From the NCBI GenBank assembly GCA_046757025.1, contig JBHHXN010000007.1, positions 1 through 64,000 of the forward strand: a stretch of 64,000 bases of DNA. The letters run 5' to 3'. This document shows, in pieces, positions 14,370-28,342 of the stretch (position 1 is the stretch's first letter; the number at the start of each line of letters is the position of its first letter). The position numbers were made by a program, and so were the translations under genes. The notes beneath the pieces are model-generated. The model was not told the DNA's origin and searched no databases. It saw only the letters and a program-made list of their open reading frames with translations. The DNA comes from a bacterium. GTDB lineage: Bacteria > Zhuqueibacterota > Zhuqueibacteria > Oceanimicrobiales > Oceanimicrobiaceae.

Positions 14370-15218
14370 CTACCGAGGAAGCTTTAACACTTGATATGGA
14401 TAAATTAAACTAGGTTCGTCACCGATGACGTCTTTATTGGCTTCATAAATTTGACGCCATTTGGTGGGGTCACCCATAACATCCATACTCCCAGCAATCT
14501 TGGAAAGATTATCACCGGGTCCCACTAAAATTTCGTTTGGTCCGTTTTCTCTGTGAATTTTAAAAATTTGATCGGGATAAATTAAGTCGGGATCCTTAAT
14601 CTGATCTTTGTTGTAAGAATAGATACGGACCCACTGTAAGGGATCGCCGTAAATGTCGGATTTTTTCGATACTTTCCAGAGATAATCACCGCGAACCACG
14701 GTATATTCATCGTACATGCCTTTGGGCATTTTCGCTCTGAGCTGAGCAATTTTACCTTCCAGCGCTGCAATTTTATTTCGCATTTCAGTCAAAACAGAAA
14801 TTCGATTGTTTTTATGTTCTTGCAGACTTTCTTCAATTGCGTCCAGCTCTTTGCGTCTTTTAAAGAGTTCTTCCGGGGAAAGCGCACCCAGAGAATTCAA
14901 CTGCCTGTCCATGTCATTTAATTGCTGGCGGTATGCATTAACATCGGCCTCGGTGACGCCGATGGCTTTATATATCTCAGCCCAAACATCTTTGGTCTGA
15001 CTATCAACATCCGCCTTTTGCGATTTGAGCGCTTCTATTTCGCCGTCTAATTTTGCAATTTCATCTTGTGCTGCCCTCTCGCGATTTGCCCACTCTTGTA
15101 ATTGAGTATTACACTCATCCATGGTCATTTCTTGAGCCAGACAAACATTCGGTCCAACGAATATTAAAAGAGCAACAAATAAAGAACAGGCAAAAAGCGT
15201 TTTTGCCACAGCTTTCAT
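14370..15218 (-). CDS. Secreted coiled-coil protein with two C-terminal LysM domains
   Basis: Signal peptide, long heptad region, YTVVRGDYLW..IYGDP..W..IY..N..I.DPDLIYP and a second similar repeat. Confidence 0.88.
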   Translation of the reverse strand: MKAVAKTLFACSLFVALLIFVGPNVCLAQEMTMDECNTQLQEWANRERAAQDEIAKLDGEIEALKSQKADVDSQTKDVWAEIYKAIGVTEADVNAYRQQLNDMDRQLNSLGALSPEELFKRRKELDAIEESLQEHKNNRISVLTEMRNKIAALEGKIAQLRAKMPKGMYDEYTVVRGDYLWKVSKKSDIYGDPLQWVRIYSYNKDQIKDPDLIYPDQIFKIHRENGPNEILVGPGDNLSKIAGSMDVMGDPTKWRQIYEANKDVIGDEPSLIYPYQVLKLPR

Positions 15219-15258
15219 GTTTACCCTCCTTATTTCAAAATTAAAATGTCATTCTCAA

Positions 15259-15528
15259 TTACTGAGCAAGTCGTTGTTTAACTGCTTCTAATTCAGCTTT
15301 TGCGTCTTGTAATTCTTTTCTTTTTTGATTGAGTTCACTTTCTACTTTACTCTTTTCCCTCCGCCTTTCTTCCAGAGTGTTTTCTGCAGAAAGCGCTGCA
15401 TTTTTTTGTTCCTCTAATGCCTGTAACTGTTCTGCGTTAGGATGCTTGGTACATCCCACAAAAGAGAAAAAAGACATTACAAATATCGCAACCAACAATA
15501 ACACAAAACCTTTTGAAGATTTTCTCAT
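15259..15528 (-). CDS. Small coiled-coil lipoprotein
   Basis: Lipobox FVGC then coiled coil; ATG at 15528 fits the AGGAGGTGA RBS better than GTG at 15540. Confidence 0.8.
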   Translation of the reverse strand: MRKSSKGFVLLLVAIFVMSFFSFVGCTKHPNAEQLQALEEQKNAALSAENTLEERRREKSKVESELNQKRKELQDAKAELEAVKQRLAQ

Positions 15529-15634
15529 CGATTCTTTCACCTCCTTCCAGAATTTGAAATTTAATTCGTAAATAATTTGCCAGTGGTGAATGTATTAGCC
15601 AAGATACTTGAATAGTATTTTTACAATACCTCGC

Positions 15635-17455: not shown

Positions 17456-17514
17456 TTACCTCCTTTTATTACAATTAGTTGGCGAAACATCATTCACTAA
17501 TTTAACAATAAAAT

Positions 17515-17549
17515 AAAAAACCGCCATAAAAATCTTCAAAATGGCGGTT
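17515..17549 (-). terminator. Putative intrinsic terminator closing the TPR-ExbBD-TonB-like operon
   Basis: AACCGCCAT/ATGGCGGTT stem followed by a T-tract on the minus strand. Confidence 0.6.
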
Positions 17550-17592
17550 AAATTTAGTATGTGGAGGAGGAAAATCTCTCAACTTTCAGGTT

Positions 17593-18687
17593 TCAGTAAC
17601 CAAAGGCATAAACCTGGCGAATGGTGGTATCGCCGTAGGAGGGTTCAACAGAACCGAAATCAGACCATCTTCGGATCCGGCTCAAAACACACTGTTCAAT
17701 TTTTCGGTTATTCAGTGTTGAAGAAACGATGTGTGCATTTTTTATGACACCCTGGGCAGTAATCGTAAATCGAATGACTACCTTGCCTTTTAAGTTGGGG
17801 TTGCGTCGCAGCTGCTTCTCATAACAATATTGGATGGATTTATTATGTTTGACCACCACCGCCTGGATCAAATTTTGATCCCGACCCTTTACCGGAGTTT
17901 TACCATCTCCTTCAATTAACGGCGCTTCATTGACGACCATTAAATCTCCGCTGCGCTTGAAGGATTCGGTTTTAGTTTTACCCAGCTCTCCGACCAGGTC
18001 ATCGATATTGCCACCGCTTTTTTTACGGCCACCTTTTACCCGGCCTCCGGCTTTCCCATAACTGCTGCCGCCGCCATTCAATCCACCGCTTGAAGTGGTT
18101 GCGGTCAAATTTGACAGCACTTTATCTAAATCGTGTTGCGACTGATTGGTATTGACGATAATATCCTCAACTTCACTACCCTGTGCAATCGAGCTGGTGG
18201 TGGTTAGCAAACCCAGAAGGCCTTTTGAGCCCACGTTCTTTGCAATTTCCTTGGCCGTTCTGACTTTTTTAGCCGGTCTACCACGTTTTGATTTGGCAGT
18301 AACCGTTCTTTTCTTGCTGCCAGATTTTTTGGATTGTGATTTCTTCTGCGCTACTTTTGGTGCAGTGGGCTTCTCCTTTTTTTCGACCTTTTTTTCTTTC
18401 CTTTTATGTTCGGAATCGGGAAATTCAAATTTAGCCTGGCGATTGGTCAATTCCACTTTCTTGCCAGTGATTGCTCGCGCCAAATTTTCTTGAATTTTTG
18501 CAATCTTACTTAACTTGTGTTCTTTGGAAATGGGATTAGCTAAAAAGTAACAAACCAGTAGAATGTGTACGGTTAAAGAGCTAAGCAAGATCGAATAAAA
18601 CCGTTTATCTATTCTATCGGATAATGTTTTGCGAAAATCTTTTTGATTGTCCTGCGACTTGAGCTCAAAAGTATCAAATTCGCTCAT
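17593..18687 (-). CDS. TonB/TolA-like energy transducer with AgmX/PglI-type C-terminal domain (GltG-like)
   Basis: TM with SLTVH (SxxxH), Lys-rich linker, GLLGLL, C-terminal IQYCYEKQLRRNPNLKGKVVIRFTI..C..RW. Confidence 0.8.
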   Translation of the reverse strand: MSEFDTFELKSQDNQKDFRKTLSDRIDKRFYSILLSSLTVHILLVCYFLANPISKEHKLSKIAKIQENLARAITGKKVELTNRQAKFEFPDSEHKRKEKKVEKKEKPTAPKVAQKKSQSKKSGSKKRTVTAKSKRGRPAKKVRTAKEIAKNVGSKGLLGLLTTTSSIAQGSEVEDIIVNTNQSQHDLDKVLSNLTATTSSGGLNGGGSSYGKAGGRVKGGRKKSGGNIDDLVGELGKTKTESFKRSGDLMVVNEAPLIEGDGKTPVKGRDQNLIQAVVVKHNKSIQYCYEKQLRRNPNLKGKVVIRFTITAQGVIKNAHIVSSTLNNRKIEQCVLSRIRRWSDFGSVEPSYGDTTIRQVYAFGY

Positions 18688-18744
18688 AATAATTCCTTCA
18701 GTAGCTATTAGTACAGGTTCAAAAAATCCATTCTAATTGATAGT

Positions 18745-19239
18745 TCAAGTGCCCTTGTTGTAAACCACCAGACGCATATTGGGATATTCAGCCGAACCGC
18801 AAGTAGCCATGACTTTTACCAAATTTTTATATTCGATACTTTGATCGCCCTGAATGGTCACCTTACCCGAAAAGGGAATGCCGAATTGAGCCTCCATTTT
18901 TTTTGCCCGTTGAGCATGGTGCAACAAAGCCTGTTGCAGCGGTTCAATAATAAATCCCTTTTGATTGGTAACTTGTTCGTATTTGAGCACGACTTTGCTG
19001 TTCAGCAATATGACGTCCTTGGAAACCACTAAATCCAGCGCAGTTTCCGGCGGATTCTGAATTGTGCTCTTGGGAAGGGTCAAAGACTCGGACGGCTGAA
19101 TTAGTTGACCTTCGGTTGCGTAGGTCTTCAGCAGAAAAACTAAAATAATCGTGAACATATCCATCATGGAAGTGAGGTTCAACTTCGCCACATTTTGTGG
19201 ACTATAATGCTTTTTAATACGCGACGGAATATAAGCCAT
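18745..19239 (-). CDS. ExbD/TolR-family protein (AglS-like)
   Basis: LNLTSMMDMFTIILVFLLK with conserved TM Asp; IQGDQSIEY. Confidence 0.9.
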   Translation of the reverse strand: MAYIPSRIKKHYSPQNVAKLNLTSMMDMFTIILVFLLKTYATEGQLIQPSESLTLPKSTIQNPPETALDLVVSKDVILLNSKVVLKYEQVTNQKGFIIEPLQQALLHHAQRAKKMEAQFGIPFSGKVTIQGDQSIEYKNLVKVMATCGSAEYPNMRLVVYNKGT

Positions 19240-19295
19240 GAATTCTCCAAAATTGATTAATTAACCTTCCGAAATGCCACTCATACTTTTCACCG

Positions 19296-19829
19296 TCACA
19301 ATGTGACGGCGCTAAGAGAAACATTGGGGAACAAACCAATGATTTCACCATCCAATTTGATCATCCGAGTTGCGTCCATAGTGCTAACCAACGTCTGGTA
19401 ATCGATGGATGCTTCCGCCTGAATAATCACCGAATCGGTATCTTTGAAGCGTCCTTTGGCCTTTTTCTTGATTTCATAGAGCTGCTTCGTCAGCAGCGCG
19501 TAATCGAATTGACCATTTTTAAGCGGAATGGAAGGACCGTGATCTCTATTTTTTAGAATGGCTTGTGAACTGGACACATAAAATCCCTGATCGGTGATGG
19601 TCACAGCCAGATCTAATTTGAGTTCCTTCTCCTTGTTTTGCGTGGTTTCCAAGGACTTGGCGCCTTTCGCTGGAGGCAGATTGAGCTCAATGACACTGAG
19701 CCGAATTAACTGTGCAGAAGAAAGAAGCAGCGGGATGAGCACGACCATCAAATTCATGATCGGCGTCATATTGGGTTCCGCCTCTTCCACTATTACACGG
19801 GTTCGACGAAGTGAAGGTCGGTATGCCAC
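19296..19829 (-). CDS. ExbD/TolR-family protein (AglQ-like)
   Basis: PNMTPIMNLMVVLIPLLL (Asn at the TM Asp position); YQTLVSTMDATR..LFP.V. Confidence 0.88.
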   Translation of the reverse strand: MAYRPSLRRTRVIVEEAEPNMTPIMNLMVVLIPLLLSSAQLIRLSVIELNLPPAKGAKSLETTQNKEKELKLDLAVTITDQGFYVSSSQAILKNRDHGPSIPLKNGQFDYALLTKQLYEIKKKAKGRFKDTDSVIIQAEASIDYQTLVSTMDATRMIKLDGEIIGLFPNVSLSAVTL

Positions 19830-19832
19830 GGT

Positions 19833-20483
19833 TTATTTATCTCCTGTCAGTAAATTAATTAATTTCACCGTGTGTTCATCGATTTCATCAATGATACGCA
19901 CGGTTTTGTTGTGAATAAAGGTATAGAACAAAATGGCCGGCACCGCAATCGACAGCCCCAGAAGGGTGGTGTTCATGGCGGTAGAAATGCCCGCAGCTAA
20001 AAACGCCGATTTCTGCGCGGCATCAAAGCCGGCTTCTGAGACAGCGCTGAAAGCCAAAATCAGGCCGTAAATCGTACCCATCAATCCGATCAAAGTCGCC
20101 ACGTTGCCGATCATCGCTAAAAAACCCGTACGCTCTTGCAGCTTGGGAATCACTTCCAGCGTGCCCTCGTCCACCGAGTTTTGGATGGCACGAAAATCCA
20201 CTTTTTCTGTGCTTGCCACCTTGCGCAAACCCGCGCTAACCACTTTAGGCAAAGCTTTGTCGTGCACGGCATCGCACAGCTCGATGGCCTTTTTAAATTC
20301 ACCGGCTTTCACGTATTTTCTGATTTCCGCCATGAAAGCATTTGAATTGATATTCGACTTGATTAAAACATAATAGGCTCTTTCCAGAGCGATGGCAATC
20401 ATAAAAGCCGCAGTAAACAACAAGGCCCACATAAATAACCAGCCAGAAGCACCAGGACGAAAATGTTCAAATAAATCAGCCAT
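19833..20483 (-). CDS. MotA/TolQ/ExbB proton-channel protein (AglR-like)
   Basis: ALER, RTGFLAMIGNVATLIGLMGTIYGLI, GISTAMNTTLLGL. Confidence 0.92.
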   Translation of the reverse strand: MADLFEHFRPGASGWLFMWALLFTAAFMIAIALERAYYVLIKSNINSNAFMAEIRKYVKAGEFKKAIELCDAVHDKALPKVVSAGLRKVASTEKVDFRAIQNSVDEGTLEVIPKLQERTGFLAMIGNVATLIGLMGTIYGLILAFSAVSEAGFDAAQKSAFLAAGISTAMNTTLLGLSIAVPAILFYTFIHNKTVRIIDEIDEHTVKLINLLTGDK

Positions 20484-20514
20484 AATTTTTATCTCCTACG
20501 ATTAATTCATTTTT

Positions 20515-20865
20515 TTATGGAATTTCTTTCTCAAGAAGTTTTTTCAAATCACTTATCGTTTTGATTTTCGCGTAATCCACTTCGATTGCTTTAAGTGCTT
20601 CCGGAGCGGATTTCAGCTCATTTAAGAAAGAACGGTCGATGAATTCAATCTCCTCGAATTTAGATTCCATCCGTTTTGGCAGCACATAAACATTGGGTTT
20701 TTCAATGATGGCTTCAATGACGATTTCTTCCAGAATGATTTCATTTTTTAATTTTTTGATATCTTTTATGTCTGCCACATTCGAAGAATCCGCCTGCGCG
20801 AAGGCATTTGCCGCACTCACTCCGAATATTATAATCAAAAACAAAATGGCACATCTTCCTATCAT
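20515..20865 (-). CDS. Small secreted protein, GltF/CglF-like
   Basis: Signal peptide then IE..IEKP....L.KR....F......F..EL pattern resembling myxobacterial CglF as recalled. Confidence 0.6.
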   Translation of the reverse strand: MIGRCAILFLIIIFGVSAANAFAQADSSNVADIKDIKKLKNEIILEEIVIEAIIEKPNVYVLPKRMESKFEEIEFIDRSFLNELKSAPEALKAIEVDYAKIKTISDLKKLLEKEIP

Positions 20866-20893
20866 TGCCGTCTCCTTGTCAATAGTTTCACGT

Positions 20894-23800
20894 TCAATTC
20901 ATATCCAGGTTTTGAGAGTTTCTTACATTTTCCTGCTCTAATTCATGGCGCAGTTTCGACCAATCCGGCATATTTTTAATCTCAAGCACTGCTTCGAAAT
21001 GGCCATGTGAGCTGTCGGAATCAAATGCCTCCACGGCCAATACGTTGCGACCACTTTTTACATATTCCAGAATATTGAAATGGTGGGTTTTTAAATTTTG
21101 TTCTTGTCCATGGCGATATTCAGCTATTTTTTGGCCGTTCAAGTAAAGAAAAAATGAATCATCCACAAAAAGCTGTAACATGCCCGACACCGGCAGGCCT
21201 GCTACGTCAAAGGATTTACGAAAATACACTTTTTCTGGTCGAATAAGGACTTTAGATAGCTTATCAATTGGTTGCGTGCTTTCGGTTGAAATTTGTCCTA
21301 ACAGATTGCTCGAATCCTGCTCAGTAAGTTGACTCTTATCGATATTTACAAACCAGATGGCGTTGGTGCCGTTGCCGGTCAGTCCCTTGGCGGGGCCCTC
21401 ATTGTAAGCATGATTCCAGAGCGTGTCCGGAAAATCTGGTTCGGTCCAGCCCGGAACAAATTCTGATGCCGCAAACCAGTTGGAGCCGGTATGAATCATT
21501 TCGGTTTCAATGTTTAATTTCAGTTTGTTAGCAAACTCTTCCGGTTTTTTCATTACCAGCGCTAAAATAATTTTTCGACTCCATTGATTATTTAATTTAA
21601 ATTCCTGACCGATGGTTAAGCCATTTTCCAGCACTTCCTGCGAACCGTCCACAAGCGCAAAATATTGTTCGTCGAAATTCAATGAAGCTTCATCGAAGTC
21701 CGTATTATCGGTGTTCTTGAAAAGCTCTTGAAAATACAAGCGCTGCGCATTTGCCATCAATGCCAGGGAATCCGCAATGGTGCTAAAATTAAAAACAGCT
21801 TTCATCACATTTTCTTCAGCCCTTTTGGCTTCGGGAGTCTGAATGTTTAACTTACGCACCTGCTGAATATTCTCGCGGTAACTCTGAATCATGGACGCTG
21901 CGGTTTTTCTGCTCAAGTCAAGGTAGTTCAACATTTGCTCGGCCACATCAAAAGCGGCCTCGTCGCCACTTTTGACCACACGTTTGTAAGATTCGATCAA
22001 ATCGCCATACGCGTTTAAAGCTCCAAAACTAATTTTTTGGAATTCCTGAGCGGATATTGTGCCGGCCGCCAGCAATTTTTTCTTGGACTTTTCAATCCAC
22101 GGATTGTCCAAATCCAGAGCTCGGCCTTCCTGGATGTTGCGAATGTGCGCATCCGTGATTTCACGGAGAACAGGGCTTATGACTTTCTCAATTAATTGAT
22201 TTCGATAGATTAACAACTCCAACTTGTCCAAACCTGGTGGGTTAATAGCGGTCAATAATTGACTGACTGTTTTGTCGTTTATCTCAGCTATGGCGTAGAG
22301 ATTTTCTGAAATTTTGTTTTGACATTTTTCGATCCACCCTTCGGCAACCGACAGCGTGGAATCATCGGAAATTTTTGTTCGAGAATAATCATCGTGGTTA
22401 TTAGCCGCTACGGACTTGCGGTAGGAGTCCGAAATTTTGGTCAGGGTTTTCACACCTTCTTTGTACGTTTTCACGGCTTTTTCAAAAAGTTCTGCCGATA
22501 CCTTGTTGACTTCTTTTTGCGCCAGGATACGTTGATTATCATTTGTAGTAAAAATTTCCTGCTCGGCCCAGGTTTTCGCAAACTCTTCATAAGCCAATCC
22601 CTGGCAATAGGTGGCCTCGTAAAGTCGGATGGTGCCTGCACTGATCACTTTGCCGTAGTTATCAAGCAAATCCAACAACATTGCCTTCTTTTTTGCTTTA
22701 TTTTGCACCACATATTGCGGGGAAATATTGAAGCGTATGCTCTGAAATTCCTTGAACTTAATTTTGGTAAGCTGATACAACGCTTCTACCGCAAAGAAGT
22801 CGTTTGTGGGTCTGTCCCGCTGTTTCAGATAATTGTTTTTGTTGATGGCTTTCTCAAATTCCGTTTTGGCTTCAACTGTGCGGTTGTTGTCCAGAAAATA
22901 CTTGCCGCGATGGAATAAGGCTTCTACGACGCCGGGTGAATCCGGATATTTCCGCGCAAACTCATCGTAAATTTTATTGGCCTGTTGAATGTCGTTCAAT
23001 TTTAAATAATAGCTGGCATTGTTGAACAACAGATTATCCGCATCCTCTGCTTTTGGAAATCGCTCAACAAATCGGGTGTTGATTCTTATCGCTTGCTGCC
23101 AATCTTCAGCCTCCACATAAGAAACGCTGGCATTGTACAAAGCAATCTCTGCCTGTTTTTCATCTGTTTGTAAATTGGCCAGCTTTTCGTAGGTCACCGC
23201 TGCCTTGTGGAAATCTTTCATTTCACGATAATCAAAAGCCAGATTGTTTAACGCATTGAGATAGTGTTTGGAATTTGGATAGTTTTGGATCAGCAGTTTG
23301 TAACTGGTGACCGCTTTTTCAAATTCACTGGCTTTTTTGTATTCTATGGCAGAATTGTATAAAGCCAAATCGGCAAATTCAGCCGTTGGAGCTTCCTGGA
23401 GCACGCGTAAATACTCTTCTGCAGCCATCACATGCTGAGAGGAGCCCGAGTACGCTTTCGCTTTCAGAAAGATGGATTCTGCCAATCGCGCCGTGGCTTT
23501 AGTGCGGTATTGCGGATCTTCATTCCGCAATCTTTTGGCAATGATTTCAGTGCTCTCAAAATCGCCCTTACCAAAATAACTTTCCATGATAACAAACTGC
23601 GCATCTCTGGCTTCCGGGCTATCCGGAAAATGCTTCAGCAAGGTTTTATTGTACATCAAAGACTCGGTGAACTGATGCTTTTCATAATACAAGGCGCCCG
23701 CTCGTGCTAATATTTTTGCTGTCCCTGGTTCATGCGGAAAAAGCCGGATGTAATTGTCCAGAGCAAAAGCTAATTTCTTTTCCTCTGCCGACAATTCCTG

Positions 23801-25399
23801 TCGCGAAATTTCTTTGCCCATTTGTAATTCCGGCCCGCTTTTTTCTGCCGATCTCGTTTGAATCGCTTCATCCCAAATGGCAATGGCGTTTTCAGCCGCT
23901 AGCTTTTGCAAATCAGTATTGAGGTACAAATTGCTTATTTTGATGTATTCCTCAAACGCCTCCTCCGTTTTACCCAGTTTGCTATCCAGTGTTAAGGCGA
24001 TATTCCAGTGTATCTGCACCGCATGACTGTCGGAGGGAAAAGTTTTTAAATAATCGCGACTGTCTTGAATCGCCTGCTGATAGAGAGCCGGGTCGTTGGA
24101 TTCTTCCGCTGTGCTGAGAATATAATTGATGTTTTCCCGCAGAGCTTTTTCCGCCAGAGAAATGGCTTCGGTCTTGGCAGTCAGGTCGCGAGTATTTTTC
24201 CACCAGTCTCCTTCAAAATTATATTTTTTGAACAGTTCAGACCGTCTTGCGTAAACCATCTGCTCGTCTTTCTTGCGACGATAAGCCTCGGTGATGTTGG
24301 CTTGAATCGTCGGCGCGTTAGGCGAGTTCGGGTACAAGCTCAACAGCAGTTGATACGACTCGATGGCTTTATCATATTCTTCTTTTTCATTTAAAAACAA
24401 ATCCCCGATCTTTTTTAAAACATCGAAGCTGTATTCCCGGCCGCCGATGATATCGAAATATTTTGCCGCCTGGCTGGGCCCACCAAAATCAAAAAAACTG
24501 ATACCAATGTACTCGATGGCCTCTTCCCGGACCTCGGGGAAATGATACTTTTTATCGGGGTCCATTTCCTGCACCAGGTCGATATCATCCGCCAGAGTTG
24601 TAAAGTAGGAAATGGCTGCCGGATAATCACTCAATCGGTAATAAGCCCAACCCAATCGATAAAGAGCCGCGTCGTATTTTGAGCTGGTCTTGTACTGCAA
24701 AACCTGGTTATAAATCTCGATTGATTTTTCAATATCGCTAACAGGGGGATTGAAATAGTATTCCGCCATGATCATCAAGGCATCGGGGATGTAGGGACTG
24801 TCGGGATATTTCTCCCTCAGCTCCTGAAAAATGTGAAACGCCTCCTCCGGTTCTCCCAGCTCCTGCAGTAAAAATCCTTTATTATAAATGGCGTCGTCTA
24901 AATACGGGCTGTCGGGAAAACGATCGATAATTTTTTGACACAAGGATAACGGTTTGCTGTAATCGAGTTTCGGTTCGATGGGAGGTTGCTTGATTTTTCC
25001 TCGTTCATAGAGATTAAGCTGTTGATTATATTTATCGTTGGCCGTGCCGTAATCCTGCACCGCCTTTTCATACTGTAGATTGGCCAGCCGAAAAATAACT
25101 TTATCGATTACAGGACTATCCGGATGCTTATTGACAAAAGCTTCCAGCTCCTGAATCGTTTCCAGACGCAATCGATCATTCTCATTTAATAATTTCTCTG
25201 TTTCCTGGTTGTATTCCTGTAAAAATTTTTCAAGCTCCTCGTCTGAGTATTTATTGAAAATTGAATCCGTGTCAGCCGTATGCGGTCGAGACTTGAGCAG
25301 ATTTTTAGAGGAAGAAAAGCTTTGACTAAAAGAATCCACCACCTGCAAATACGGCAGGAGCAGGACGGCACAAAGTATCGAAAAAGGTGTATTTCTCAT
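20894..25399 (-). CDS. Giant secreted TPR protein (GltD/AgmU-like) with C-terminal beta-sandwich domain
   Basis: Signal peptide, many TPR repeats with (Y/F)PDS turns; C-terminus W..PDF.D..W, YFRKSF, VDDSFFLYLNG, GRNVLAVE. Confidence 0.8.
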   Translation of the reverse strand: MRNTPFSILCAVLLLPYLQVVDSFSQSFSSSKNLLKSRPHTADTDSIFNKYSDEELEKFLQEYNQETEKLLNENDRLRLETIQELEAFVNKHPDSPVIDKVIFRLANLQYEKAVQDYGTANDKYNQQLNLYERGKIKQPPIEPKLDYSKPLSLCQKIIDRFPDSPYLDDAIYNKGFLLQELGEPEEAFHIFQELREKYPDSPYIPDALMIMAEYYFNPPVSDIEKSIEIYNQVLQYKTSSKYDAALYRLGWAYYRLSDYPAAISYFTTLADDIDLVQEMDPDKKYHFPEVREEAIEYIGISFFDFGGPSQAAKYFDIIGGREYSFDVLKKIGDLFLNEKEEYDKAIESYQLLLSLYPNSPNAPTIQANITEAYRRKKDEQMVYARRSELFKKYNFEGDWWKNTRDLTAKTEAISLAEKALRENINYILSTAEESNDPALYQQAIQDSRDYLKTFPSDSHAVQIHWNIALTLDSKLGKTEEAFEEYIKISNLYLNTDLQKLAAENAIAIWDEAIQTRSAEKSGPELQMGKEISRQELSAEEKKLAFALDNYIRLFPHEPGTAKILARAGALYYEKHQFTESLMYNKTLLKHFPDSPEARDAQFVIMESYFGKGDFESTEIIAKRLRNEDPQYRTKATARLAESIFLKAKAYSGSSQHVMAAEEYLRVLQEAPTAEFADLALYNSAIEYKKASEFEKAVTSYKLLIQNYPNSKHYLNALNNLAFDYREMKDFHKAAVTYEKLANLQTDEKQAEIALYNASVSYVEAEDWQQAIRINTRFVERFPKAEDADNLLFNNASYYLKLNDIQQANKIYDEFARKYPDSPGVVEALFHRGKYFLDNNRTVEAKTEFEKAINKNNYLKQRDRPTNDFFAVEALYQLTKIKFKEFQSIRFNISPQYVVQNKAKKKAMLLDLLDNYGKVISAGTIRLYEATYCQGLAYEEFAKTWAEQEIFTTNDNQRILAQKEVNKVSAELFEKAVKTYKEGVKTLTKISDSYRKSVAANNHDDYSRTKISDDSTLSVAEGWIEKCQNKISENLYAIAEINDKTVSQLLTAINPPGLDKLELLIYRNQLIEKVISPVLREITDAHIRNIQEGRALDLDNPWIEKSKKKLLAAGTISAQEFQKISFGALNAYGDLIESYKRVVKSGDEAAFDVAEQMLNYLDLSRKTAASMIQSYRENIQQVRKLNIQTPEAKRAEENVMKAVFNFSTIADSLALMANAQRLYFQELFKNTDNTDFDEASLNFDEQYFALVDGSQEVLENGLTIGQEFKLNNQWSRKIILALVMKKPEEFANKLKLNIETEMIHTGSNWFAASEFVPGWTEPDFPDTLWNHAYNEGPAKGLTGNGTNAIWFVNIDKSQLTEQDSSNLLGQISTESTQPIDKLSKVLIRPEKVYFRKSFDVAGLPVSGMLQLFVDDSFFLYLNGQKIAEYRHGQEQNLKTHHFNILEYVKSGRNVLAVEAFDSDSSHGHFEAVLEIKNMPDWSKLRHELEQENVRNSQNLDMN

Positions 25400-25458
25400 A
25401 TCATTACAGTTTTTATGAATAGCAGCAAAATACCTTCAAATTTTCTTCAGTTTGGTTT

Positions 25459-28230
25459 TTATTTCTCCTCGACTTCTCGCTGTCTTAAATCGAAATAGGA
25501 TTCTTTAAAAGACGGATCGGAAAGGGATTGCTCTATCAGGATTTTTTCTTGCTTCTGAACATTTTCAGCCATGCGTTTTTCCCAATCTTCTTCGAGCTGT
25601 TTTATTCGTTCGGCATTTTTTCGTTCTTGCAAAAGATTATGAATAAATTGACCATTTTGTGAAAGCTCCATGATCCTTTGCTTCTTTTCAGCAATGGCAG
25701 TTAATTTGACATTGCTCAATCCAAAACCGGAAAAATCCGCATAGTGATCAAATTGTGTGTTCATCTCTTGCTGGTGGTTTTCAACCAGCCAGGCGTTGAT
25801 TTTCGTGGAACGATCTTTGAGTCGATTTATATCGTTCTGCAATATTTCCAGCTCTATCTTTGTACTGACAGAAGTTTTCGCATAATCAATCCTGCGCTGT
25901 AAGTTTTGTAATTGAAAGAATATCTTTTCAATTTGCTCCAATTCAGACTGGATGTTTTTTTTGATATCGTCTAACATCTTTTTTCGGTAATTTACCATTC
26001 CTTCTTGAGATGCCAGCGGATATTCTGAATAATAATTTGAATTGAGGCCGTTATGTCTGCTGTTTATGGCTTGCATAGCCATGCTGAATCTATCTTTTCG
26101 ATTCTTTTCTAAATCAAATCCCGCAAAGCTGGTTTCTCCATATTTTTGTGTCACCAGGCTGGTAAATTCCTCCAATTGATTCAAAAGGTTCACGCCGTCC
26201 TGGTTTGCCAGGATGGCCTCGAATTTACCGCTTTTTTCAATTTTCTGATATTGTTCCAACATCTGCTGAAACTGTTCTCGTAACTGCACCAAGGTTTCGT
26301 ACAGTGGCTTGTCCCTATGTTCAAGAATCAATTTCTCCACTTCTTCCAGTGCCATGAGTTGATTTAAGATAAATCTTCTTTCTGAATTATAGAGCTCGAC
26401 TATCTCCAGCGCTTCTCGAGCCTCGGAAATATAATTCAAATCTCTCAATGCTGAATCGTGTTGATTGAGGATTTTTTTGCAATGCGCAGACAAGGTGAGT
26501 GCCTCGTAGGTATGCAGGGAAGCCAAATCGTAAGTCACCAGCAGTTTCACGTTGGCAATGGCGTGCTCATAATTTTTCAATTTTAAATTGGCCCAGGCAG
26601 CCCCCAACAATGCCTTATCAAAGTAAGTCGATTTCTTATTCAAACTGTTAAAATAAAATAATGCATCCTGAAAATTGCCGGATTCATAATTCAAATAACC
26701 CAATTTTAACAGCGCTTTATCCTGGAATTGGGCGATTTCTCGATCAGATGAGGGATAATCATCGATCTGCAGGATTTGATTAAAAATCGCCTCAGCAGAT
26801 GCGTAATTCCGAAGATTCACTTCCACCACGCCGGCGAGATACCTGGCAGACAAATAATACGCTGATTCTTTCGGAATTTGTGCAAGCCGTTTTCTGGCGC
26901 CTTCAAAATCGCCATATTTGAAATGCAAATAGCCGGCTAAATAAAAAGTCTTATCTCGCAATATTCCGGACAGTTGCTGAGCATGGGTTTGGAGCAGCCG
27001 GGCATATTTTGAACACGCCTCTCGGTCTTTGAGGCGATTGTTGACCATCAGCAACCGATAAACACTTTCCGTGAAATATTGAGACCCGGCCATTTGAAAC
27101 GCGAGTCGCTCATAATCCGCACGCGCCTGTTGGTACAATCGTTGAATAAAATAACTTTCTGCCCGATAAAAAAGAACGGTCGCAAGGAAGGGGTTTTGCT
27201 GGTTGTATTCGTCTAATATCGCATCGAACTGTTTAATGGCCAGCGGGAAATTTTCATCCCGATAATTGGTCAAGGCATCTCGCAAATCCGACTTCAGCAT
27301 GCGGGTTTTTTCTGCCGAAGTTGCCTGTTGCAACAGCAGTTTTTTGATGATCAAATAGCGCGTTAACACCACTTGATATTGAATATATTCTCGCGCTTTC
27401 CATTCATTAAATGCTTCGGTGATGTTGATTGCATTGTTTGAATCGATTTTTTCGTAACCCATCAAGGATAGAACTTTGGCATCTAAATTATTTAAAATAA
27501 CCCTCTTGGTGTCTTCAATTTCATAGCTCAGACTGGAATTTAGCTGCCTGGTTTTTTCCAGGAGCCGATCCAGCTCAACCAGCGCCTTTTTGAGTAATTG
27601 CACTTCGTTCAAATATTCTTCCGAGATCGCTTTGAAGCGGGCGCTGTCCGCAAGTACAGACTTTCTGGCCGGCTCAGAGTTGGACCGCACGTTTTCTGCA
27701 TAATATTGATGGCGGCTTTTATTCCGCAGATCATTATCTTCTATTAGTTTAGTGATTCTGCTACGGATATTCTCGAGCTGACTCCAGGATTCTCTGTCCA
27801 GTTCGGGATCGACCATTTGTTTAAGCAGATCGATTTCATCGATGATCTGAATCAGCAAATTCAGCTCATTGGAATAGGCTTCAACCAGTTGTTCAGAATT
27901 TCCATAAACCACGCGAACCTCATTCAATATTTGGCTGTTTGGAAATTGTCCCCTTTTTTTGATTTCCTGAATAATGTTTTCAATTAATTGTAAAAGAAAT
28001 TTCTCCCGCACCACCATATCATTTAGATGAGGTTTGCTAATTTGATTTAAATAAAAAGCCAGTCGATCTTCAAAACTGATTTCTTTGTATCTGCCTGAAC
28101 CGTAGAGGCCTTGTGAGTAAATGAGTAATGAAAAACAAAAACCCGCGAGCAGCAAAATGGTCAGAGAAACCCTTGTTTTATCGAATAATTTTTTAGGTAA
28201 AAAGCGATACCGCGTTTTCATGGCGTGCAC
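25459..28230 (-). CDS. Secreted/anchored TPR and coiled-coil protein (GltC-like)
   Basis: N-terminal hydrophobic segment, central TPRs (LFYRAESYF, ALLGAAWA), coiled-coil flanks; start could be the ATG at 28221. Confidence 0.75.
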   Translation of the reverse strand: MHAMKTRYRFLPKKLFDKTRVSLTILLLAGFCFSLLIYSQGLYGSGRYKEISFEDRLAFYLNQISKPHLNDMVVREKFLLQLIENIIQEIKKRGQFPNSQILNEVRVVYGNSEQLVEAYSNELNLLIQIIDEIDLLKQMVDPELDRESWSQLENIRSRITKLIEDNDLRNKSRHQYYAENVRSNSEPARKSVLADSARFKAISEEYLNEVQLLKKALVELDRLLEKTRQLNSSLSYEIEDTKRVILNNLDAKVLSLMGYEKIDSNNAINITEAFNEWKAREYIQYQVVLTRYLIIKKLLLQQATSAEKTRMLKSDLRDALTNYRDENFPLAIKQFDAILDEYNQQNPFLATVLFYRAESYFIQRLYQQARADYERLAFQMAGSQYFTESVYRLLMVNNRLKDREACSKYARLLQTHAQQLSGILRDKTFYLAGYLHFKYGDFEGARKRLAQIPKESAYYLSARYLAGVVEVNLRNYASAEAIFNQILQIDDYPSSDREIAQFQDKALLKLGYLNYESGNFQDALFYFNSLNKKSTYFDKALLGAAWANLKLKNYEHAIANVKLLVTYDLASLHTYEALTLSAHCKKILNQHDSALRDLNYISEAREALEIVELYNSERRFILNQLMALEEVEKLILEHRDKPLYETLVQLREQFQQMLEQYQKIEKSGKFEAILANQDGVNLLNQLEEFTSLVTQKYGETSFAGFDLEKNRKDRFSMAMQAINSRHNGLNSNYYSEYPLASQEGMVNYRKKMLDDIKKNIQSELEQIEKIFFQLQNLQRRIDYAKTSVSTKIELEILQNDINRLKDRSTKINAWLVENHQQEMNTQFDHYADFSGFGLSNVKLTAIAEKKQRIMELSQNGQFIHNLLQERKNAERIKQLEEDWEKRMAENVQKQEKILIEQSLSDPSFKESYFDLRQREVEEK

Positions 28231-28284
28231 CTACAGTTGAATTTTCCGTGTGAGAAGATGCAAAAATAACTATTCCAAATGGAA

Positions 28285-28342
28285 TAAAAAAAGTGAATGA
28301 CCATAGAATCATTATTATTTATTCTATTTCGTCATTCACTTT
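28285..28342 (-). terminator. Putative intrinsic terminator of the atp operon
   Basis: AAAGTGAATGAC/GTCATTCACTTT stem with inner ATAGAAT/ATTCTAT, T-tract on the minus strand. Confidence 0.6.

Follow-up and report, generated by a model that had tools for sequence, protein, structure and literature searches.

The window analysed here (64,000 nucleotides, positions 1 to 64,000 of contig JBHHXN010000007.1, assembly GCA_046757025.1, from a bacterium of the Zhuqueibacterota) carries a seven-gene operon that is very probably a variant of the Agl-Glt core complex, related to the gliding (Agl-Glt) and spore-coat (Agl-Nfs) machines of Myxococcus xanthus. We filed it as a variant rather than a canonical member because GltE is not in the cluster. 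New here are an Asn in the first and an Asp in the second axle subunit of the motor, a predicted CBM67/GH2-like sugar-binding fold at the end of a scaffold protein, a candidate outer-membrane partner of the operon, suggested by sequence and model, a phylum-wide marker in the small secreted protein, and a second paralogous operon in this genome. The literature searched, mostly open-access, gave no account of the operon in KSB1 or of a natural Asn/Asp axle. PMC5317091 is a further source.

The proteins are called C, D, F, R, Q, S and G, with Q and S named by their position after R, as for M. xanthus in the table of PMC3169522. The features, with lengths in amino acids (aa), are as follows (TPR, tetratricopeptide repeat; MFE, minimum free energy).

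28284..28342, minus strand: upstream terminator-like hairpin and T-run, after atpC (MFE -21.1 kcal/mol, z -4.95, 0/200 shuffles)
25459..28230, minus strand: C, GltC-like periplasmic TPR/coiled-coil protein, 923 aa (NCBIfam and profile search)
20894..25399, minus strand: D, GltD-like TPR scaffold, 1501 aa (profile of myxobacterial GltD-position proteins)
20930..21517, minus strand: C-terminal sugar-binding-like jelly-roll domain of D, residues ~1295-1490 (profile, Pfam, structure model)
20515..20865, minus strand: F, GltF-like small secreted protein, 116 aa (35-row alignment, hhalign)
19833..20483, minus strand: R, AglR-like MotA/TolQ/ExbB subunit, 216 aa (Pfam PF01618, tree, hydropathy)
19296..19829, minus strand: Q, first ExbD-like (AglQ-position) subunit, 177 aa (Asn26 codon 19752-19754)
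18745..19239, minus strand: S, second ExbD-like (AglS-position) subunit, 164 aa (Asp27 codon 19159-19161)
17593..18687, minus strand: G, GltG-like TonB-type transducer, 364 aa (AgmX/PglI C-domain ~17617-17880)
17510..17549, minus strand: downstream terminator-like hairpin and T-run, before aspS (MFE -12.8 kcal/mol, z -3.43, 2/200 shuffles)

Gene content of the operon and its relatives

R carries the MotA_ExbB domain and has three transmembrane (TM) helices predicted from hydropathy. In a quick tree of 104 AglR-like and 17 ExbB/TolQ rows, the latter including this genome's own proteins, R fell in the AglR-like clade with a support of 99 by the SH-like approximate likelihood ratio test (SH-aLRT). 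Removal of 8 long or fused and 39 redundant rows left 58 AglR-like and 16 ExbB/TolQ rows, and the separation was again SH-aLRT 99, also in a quick tree. The R of the window is placed in a clade of KSB1, Calditrichota and Electryoneota. The AglR and Glt references were myxobacterial proteins picked by NCBIfam scores, with no M. xanthus sequence among them. The first-pass annotation, made from the letters of the window alone, had named grouping with ordinary ExbBD/TolQR as one half of the result that would speak against it, and R joined the AglR-like proteins instead. The genome has, besides, a complete tolQ-R-A-B-pal-cpoB operon on contig C97 and two ExbBD-TonB operons, all identified from translations without family scans. 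A sequence search of the PDB returned no Agl/Glt structure, R matching TolQ/ExbB and G reaching only E > 0.07, and a plasmid search gave 6 records, all distant ExbB-like matches. An odd motor operon was also seen at L077:644-9513 (G000:C21), encoding a protein of 545 aa that is MotA-like in part, two or three ExbD-like proteins and a 1073-aa TPR-like protein.

The best NCBIfam family of C is gliding_GltC, at 38 bits far below the cut-off of 450. With a myxobacterial GltC-like profile, C was the top match among the 21,690 open reading frames (ORFs) of the genome (65 bits, next ORF 25), and it ranked first with each of three profiles made from myxobacterial, other deltaproteobacterial and Nitrospira/gamma clusters (32-76 bits). 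A profile of three myxobacterial GltD-position proteins gave 192 bits for D, 176 for its paralogue and 44 for the next of the same ORFs, and D was the reverse best match with three independent profiles. The profile comparison proposed in the first-pass annotation for the TPR proteins thus returned C and D as the best matches in the genome.

The same comparison was less clear for the small protein. F has a signal peptide and a conserved core of 45 residues (about 43-87 in a 35-row alignment), and its direct similarity to myxobacterial CglF by hhalign was weak (P 44%, E 2e-4), with a gapless core and the same spacing of P, R, F and E. The similarity was moderate through the same-position genes of Nitrospira, gamma, Fibrobacterota and other clusters, which match F at P 98% and CglF at P 90%; these intermediates were picked by position and partly with the F profile itself. 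F ranked first in the genome in a GltF-type profile search, weakly (E 0.18). Matches to the GltF/CglF family NF033764 stayed below its cut-off of 90 bits, being found for 3 of the 35 F rows (best E 0.0019) and for one of 73 scanned relatives out of 150 listed (18.5 bits). A search of the ESM Atlas with F returned unnamed clusters only. One extra gene in the core clusters outside the deltaproteobacteria has been described as 'with no homologues in Myxococcales' (PMC3169522), and these comparisons suggest that this small gene is probably a divergent GltF.

For G, the best NCBIfam family is gliding_GltG (115 bits, under the equivalog cut-off of 650), and its C-terminal domain passes myxo_SS_tail (AgmX/PglI) with 91 bits against a cut-off of 40. 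G has a single TM helix holding S37-x3-H41 and a low-complexity linker, and no FHA domain was seen, so that the SxxxH motif, the distinctive C-domain and the missing GltG FHA domain were all as first described. The exact SxxxH is present in 18 of 20 rows from operons of this type (type A) and in none of 8 rows from the second type (type B, below). A search for GltG in longer, fused forms (857-2445 aa) was negative, though as evidence this is weak, and true-family GltG at E 1e-150 was found in none of 251 myxobacterial genomes.

The ORF list bears out the seven co-oriented genes of the first-pass annotation with their lengths: seven minus-strand ORFs at 28230-17593 encode 923, 1501, 116, 216, 177, 164 and 364 aa, with intergenic gaps of 3-59 nucleotides, between atpC and aspS. 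The GC content is the same as that of the surroundings. Pfam assigned TPR to C and D, nothing to F, MotA_ExbB to R, ExbD to Q and S, and a weak TonB_C to G, in line with the types that had been named (two TPR proteins, a small protein, one MotA/TolQ/ExbB, two ExbD/TolR and a TonB-like protein). The hairpins proposed on both sides fold better than shuffles, each followed by a T-run, and neither was picked up by a simple terminator scan. No TonB-dependent receptor, tolB or pal was present among the ORFs of window positions 12-34 kb, as had been stated, and the supposed non-myxobacterial host, probably of the Fibrobacteres-Chlorobi-Bacteroidetes (FCB) group, agrees with the nearest named homologues of Q, which are KSB1, Calditrichota and Zhuqueibacterota proteins. 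The term 'self-contained' is doubtful, since a candidate outer-membrane partner is encoded on another contig. Behind aspS (14370-15540) lie genes for an alanine-zipper lipoprotein (93 aa) and a coiled-coil LysM protein (282 aa), kept in 15/42 and 14/42 mapped loci.

GltE, MglA and GltA/B/H-type barrels were looked for in the whole genome, which is 94.8% complete. GltE, likewise not seen in the first reading, was not found over the cut-off (best 46.5 against 225 bits, generic TPR proteins only), profiles of the GltE-like proteins from the same three kinds of cluster also drew generic TPR proteins only, and KSB1 loci have no gene between D and F; GltE candidates on contigs C65, C9 and C143 were rejected as generic TPR proteins. 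MglA, with PF00025 (Arf) as a proxy, gave no match at E 1e-5. For the GltA/B/H barrels we took TIGR04565 (OMP_myx_plus) as a proxy; it passes its cut-off once in this genome, on contig C53, and in 11 of 113 genomes of the phylum. The match lies in an unrelated-looking locus (L083:8833-14617, G000:C53), where a hydrazine-synthase-alpha-like gene and a gene for a barrel-like protein of 370 aa are lined up with three small beta-barrel genes, and the barrel was rejected as an operon partner for its sporadic occurrence. A recurrent pair of weak OMP_myx_plus barrels was rejected as well, as it belongs to an unrelated KSB1 locus absent from this genome (L087-L098; two barrel genes of ~220 and ~540 aa, in several with a sigma-54/CHASE2-like regulator).

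These results make a gliding motor like Agl-Glt quite unlikely, even though all seven proteins have gliding-machine counterparts, no flagellin was found in this genome and one OMP_myx_plus barrel passes the cut-off. GltE and an MglA-like protein were not found, G is without FHA, Asn stands at the AglQ Asp site, and the single barrel is of a sporadic kind beside a hydrazine-synthase-alpha-like gene. The core alone was considered unlikely to drive motility (Luciano 2011, PMC3169522), and the source on cultured Caldithrix abyssi reports tumbling and flagellar genes, with no gliding behaviour mentioned in the parts covered. Of the 'PMF-driven surface transport or motility machine' (PMF, proton-motive force) proposed at first, a transport or force machine fits better, and motility is the weaker half.

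The Asn/Asp pair at the proton site of the axle

The position of Q equivalent to ExbD Asp25 is Asn in 35 of 36 loci (Asn26 in the window), and S has the proton-site Asp in 36/36 (Asp27 in the window). These loci were selected through G, independently of the proton-site residue. The sole locus with Asp in the first ExbD-like subunit is L046:3042-5545, and its GltG-like helix is also without the His of SxxxH. The ExbD/TolR subunits of the genome's own Tol-Pal and ExbBD-TonB operons retain the Asp.

At least 119 matches in GTDB were obtained with a degenerate Q motif, and among 80 fetched, 78 were genuine, all 78 with Asn; the motif permitted Asp, but its context is blind to Asp-bearing myxobacterial types. 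Record titles among the matches listed name Calditrichota, Cloacimonadota, Fibrobacterota, Latescibacterota, Krumholzibacteria, Gemmatimonadota, Nitrospirota, Gammaproteobacteria, Desulfobacterales, Myxococcota, Bradymonadales and Spirochaetales. A search of five myxobacterial genomes with R, from which 30 of 36 matches were fetched, gave 7 AglR-like loci whose first subunit carries Asp and 4 in which it carries Asn, with one unread. Loci L237-L240 presumably hold true AglQ orthologues, judged by a motif. Both Asp-bearing myxobacterial groups nest within Asn lineages, and a single origin was not rejected by the approximately unbiased test (p-AU 0.336). In Fibrobacterota (L142:9451-10758, L154:9284-10573) a second R is fused to an Asn-type Q.

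According to a review, the Asp is present in AglQ as well as in AglS (PMC9389320). AglQ D28N abolished proton conductance and motility in M. xanthus (PMC3858216), and ExbD D25N was inactive and dominant negative in E. coli (bioRxiv 2022.09.26.509584). A stator driven by sodium, or serving as a passive scaffold, would explain an Asn at one of two proton sites where the change is lethal to two studied motors. We argue that the motor with the Asn/Asp pair would still be active and proton-pumping, because Asp27 of S is invariant, as are the threonines, the proline and the acidic residues in the channel region of R, and SxxxH is kept; the same residues make the non-proton stator very improbable.

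Phylum-wide retention, the tip of D and a candidate outer-membrane barrel

G matched all 41 genomes searched. Forty regions around these matches comprised 27 of type A, 7 of type B and 6 with a stand-alone G, and addition of the window and of this genome's own type-B copy on contig C33 gave 28 type-A and 8 type-B loci. The order F-R-Q-S-G was found in 28/28 type-A loci, with a full-length C in 26 and the other two running off the contig. The six stand-alone GltG-like genes (L054-L059) had no other core gene in the fetched region. In the phylum, the F profile matched 132 of 133 genomes at least 85% complete, and of the 113 genomes with a completeness of 90% or more, 90 have type A; in these counts kin genomes are not independent. 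Retention of the operon in the phylum is near-core. A place between atpC and aspS is frequent for type A and is seen in named Calditrichota records too.

The second operon (L001:6901-15817, G000:C33:18900-27816) encodes a barrel, C, D (958 aa), F, R, Q (Asn), S (Asp) and G. Its G has 441 aa and an extra N-terminal domain, and its C gene is in two pieces, as in L066. In Cloacimonadota (L112:7610-18810, L127, L150, L155, L170), a barrel-like gene with a coiled-coil tail stands with genes for a ~2000-aa TPR protein, a 90-aa protein, R, Q, S and a divergent G. In L177:14688-17488, genes resembling Wza and Wzc by eye come after G.

Residues ~1295-1490 of D profile-match a rhamnosidase (PDB 3w5m, E 3e-17) and a Pleurotus lectin (PDB 6kbj, E 3e-12). 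We take the matched part of 3w5m to be CBM67, which binds rhamnose through calcium. Sugar-binding Pfam families were matched, with Glyco_hydro_2_N in 18 of 39 rows, and the structure model (mean predicted local distance difference test score, pLDDT, 90.7) resembles GH2 sugar-binding domains at a template-modelling score (TM-score) of ~0.5. The acidic residues D1413, D1460 and D1462 are kept in 30/39, 29/39 and 26/39 rows, and acidic residues of the domain align with the 'ADN' loop of 3w5m. For CBM67-like lectins, the reported ligands are Gal, GalNAc, GlcNAc and L-Rha (PMC11186620).

A gene for a PF13557-like barrel heads 7 of 8 type-B loci, and a paralogue of it lies on contig C11 (L265:9915-11135, G000:C11:21914-23134), with a strongly conserved C-terminal coiled coil. 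In L176 the orthologue of the C11 barrel is directly upstream of the type-A operon (37% identity, E 4e-64, against 26%, E 1e-13, for the other paralogue). By a hand count in the window's class, a C11-type barrel at E <=1e-80 was present in 62 of 66 genomes with type A and 5 of 21 without, and in three families barrel and type A are absent jointly. Matches to the C11 barrel occur in 110 of the 113 phylum genomes, and further paralogues are frequent. In most own-family loci examined, the C11-type gene follows a sugar-phosphate nucleotidyltransferase-like gene, and Cloacimonadota and Gemmatimonadota loci have barrel-like genes with similar tails. The C11 model (pLDDT 62) is a COG4313/FapF-like barrel of 12 strands with a long C-terminal helix, and it matches COG4313, FapF and FadL channels (TM-score by target 0.62 to 4rl8).

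The likeness to these channels, taken with the SxxxH and TonB-like C-domain of G, could also fit TonB-like transport, in which the motor would open or gate the 12-stranded barrel so that a small molecule, lipid or peptide is taken in or released, with F as a detached TonB box. Such transport would have no need of two giant TPR scaffolds, the genome already has two ordinary ExbBD-TonB operons, and the operon lies between atpC and aspS with no linked substrate genes; we regard it as somewhat unlikely. The long and highly conserved periplasmic coiled coil of the barrel would suit a Tol-Pal-like machine without glycan cargo, acting on the outer membrane of growing or dividing cells by tethering, redistributing or constricting it, as would near-universality in the phylum, the housekeeping neighbourhood and, in many loci, the lipoprotein and LysM genes after aspS. 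That function is unlikely, given the complete Tol-Pal operon on contig C97 and an R that does not group with TolQ.

Proposed function and comparison with known systems

Our leading reading, held tentatively and with a little less than even confidence, is that a proton-driven single-site motor would pull on a candidate outer-membrane barrel and/or envelope sugar polymers in routine envelope building. Routine envelope or glycan handling is favoured because of the phylum-wide retention, the housekeeping neighbourhood and the sugar-binding-like tip, and there is no sign of a cytoplasmic gliding platform, since GltE, FHA and MglA were not found. By analogy with the AlphaFold model of the Myxococcus complex, which has an R5-Q-S stator (PMC11761067), G would dock on the stator through its SxxxH helix, and its linker would cross the peptidoglycan and wrap D. 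The TonB-like C-domain of G would hold a beta-strand in F in the way that TonB holds a TonB box, and F and D would bridge to C, which would face the outer membrane (PMC11761067). Force generated by R5QS would then reach D, F and C by way of G and be handed on to the outer membrane, where C would hold the conserved coiled-coil tail of the C11 barrel. A motor with one Asp would work by a single power stroke instead of alternating two-site rotation, and the cargo would be glycan, as Glt/Nfs machines move surface sugar polymers (PMC3858216).

Several points weigh against this reading. The Asp-to-Asn change of Q is the one that inactivates M. xanthus AglQ and E. coli ExbD, in the latter with a dominant-negative effect. 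The CglF family NF033764 gives no match in this genome, and a core-only F profile scores real members no better than shuffles. Conservation at the tip of D is lower (27-33%, against 41-64% for the TPR body), the shorter GltD-like protein of the second operon has no such tip, and the folds closest to that of the tip are those of GH2 accessory domains, a kind that is often structural. The barrel orthologue remains in 5 of 21 operon-less genomes, and the E 1e-80 threshold was set after the data were seen, just above the next paralogue, among kin that are not independent.

A wider proposal is possible, though doubtful: that the ancestral Agl-type machine, kept in at least 10 phyla, was a 5:1:1 one-Asp motor; that in the FCB group it would join Ton, Tol and Mot as the fourth envelope machine with a housekeeping role, pulling glycans or an outer-membrane barrel with a coiled-coil tail through a lectin-tipped TPR shaft; and that regain of the second Asp would have led to processive myxobacterial gliding. 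What the Agl-Glt core does has been a question since 2011, and the one-Asp axle, lectin-like tip and candidate barrel make it testable. A natural Asp-to-Asn stator offers a direct test of the need of 5:2 motors for two alternating proton sites, and the candidate glycan-binding domain and outer-membrane partner would offer a first concrete approach to the cargo. Being retained across the phylum, the operon belongs to the basic cell biology of KSB1/Calditrichota, which include cultured species.

The closest known system is Group B of the Agl-Glt 'core complex', defined by aglR, aglQ, aglS, gltC, gltD, gltE, gltG and one extra gene (PMC3169522). Like it, the operon has AglR/Q/S-, GltG-, GltD- and GltC-like genes together, a small secreted gene before aglR and no gliding accessories; it differs in the absence of GltE, much longer C and D, the sugar-binding-like tip on D, a G without FHA, and near-universal occurrence in a phylum unnamed in the sections of PMC3169522 covered. 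That paper limits gltF to Myxococcales and Bdellovibrionales, whereas the extra small gene here appears to be GltF-related. With the M. xanthus gliding and spore-coat machines the operon shares a heterodimeric axle, a GltG-type C-domain and GltC/D/F-like periplasmic parts, but AglQ requires Asp28 where Q has Asn, GltE and MglA were not found, and GltA/B-type barrels are sporadic. ExbB-ExbD-TonB and TolQ-TolR-TolA have in common with it the 5:2 stator family, the SxxxH helix and the TonB-like C-domain, whereas R belongs to a separate clade and receptor, TolB and Pal are not in the operon. CBM67-like modules (SaRha78A, PDB 3w5m; Pleurotus lectin, PDB 6kbj) are the best sequence matches of the D tip, which differs from them in standing on a TPR scaffold rather than an enzyme, and whose listed Foldseek matches are GH2 domains.

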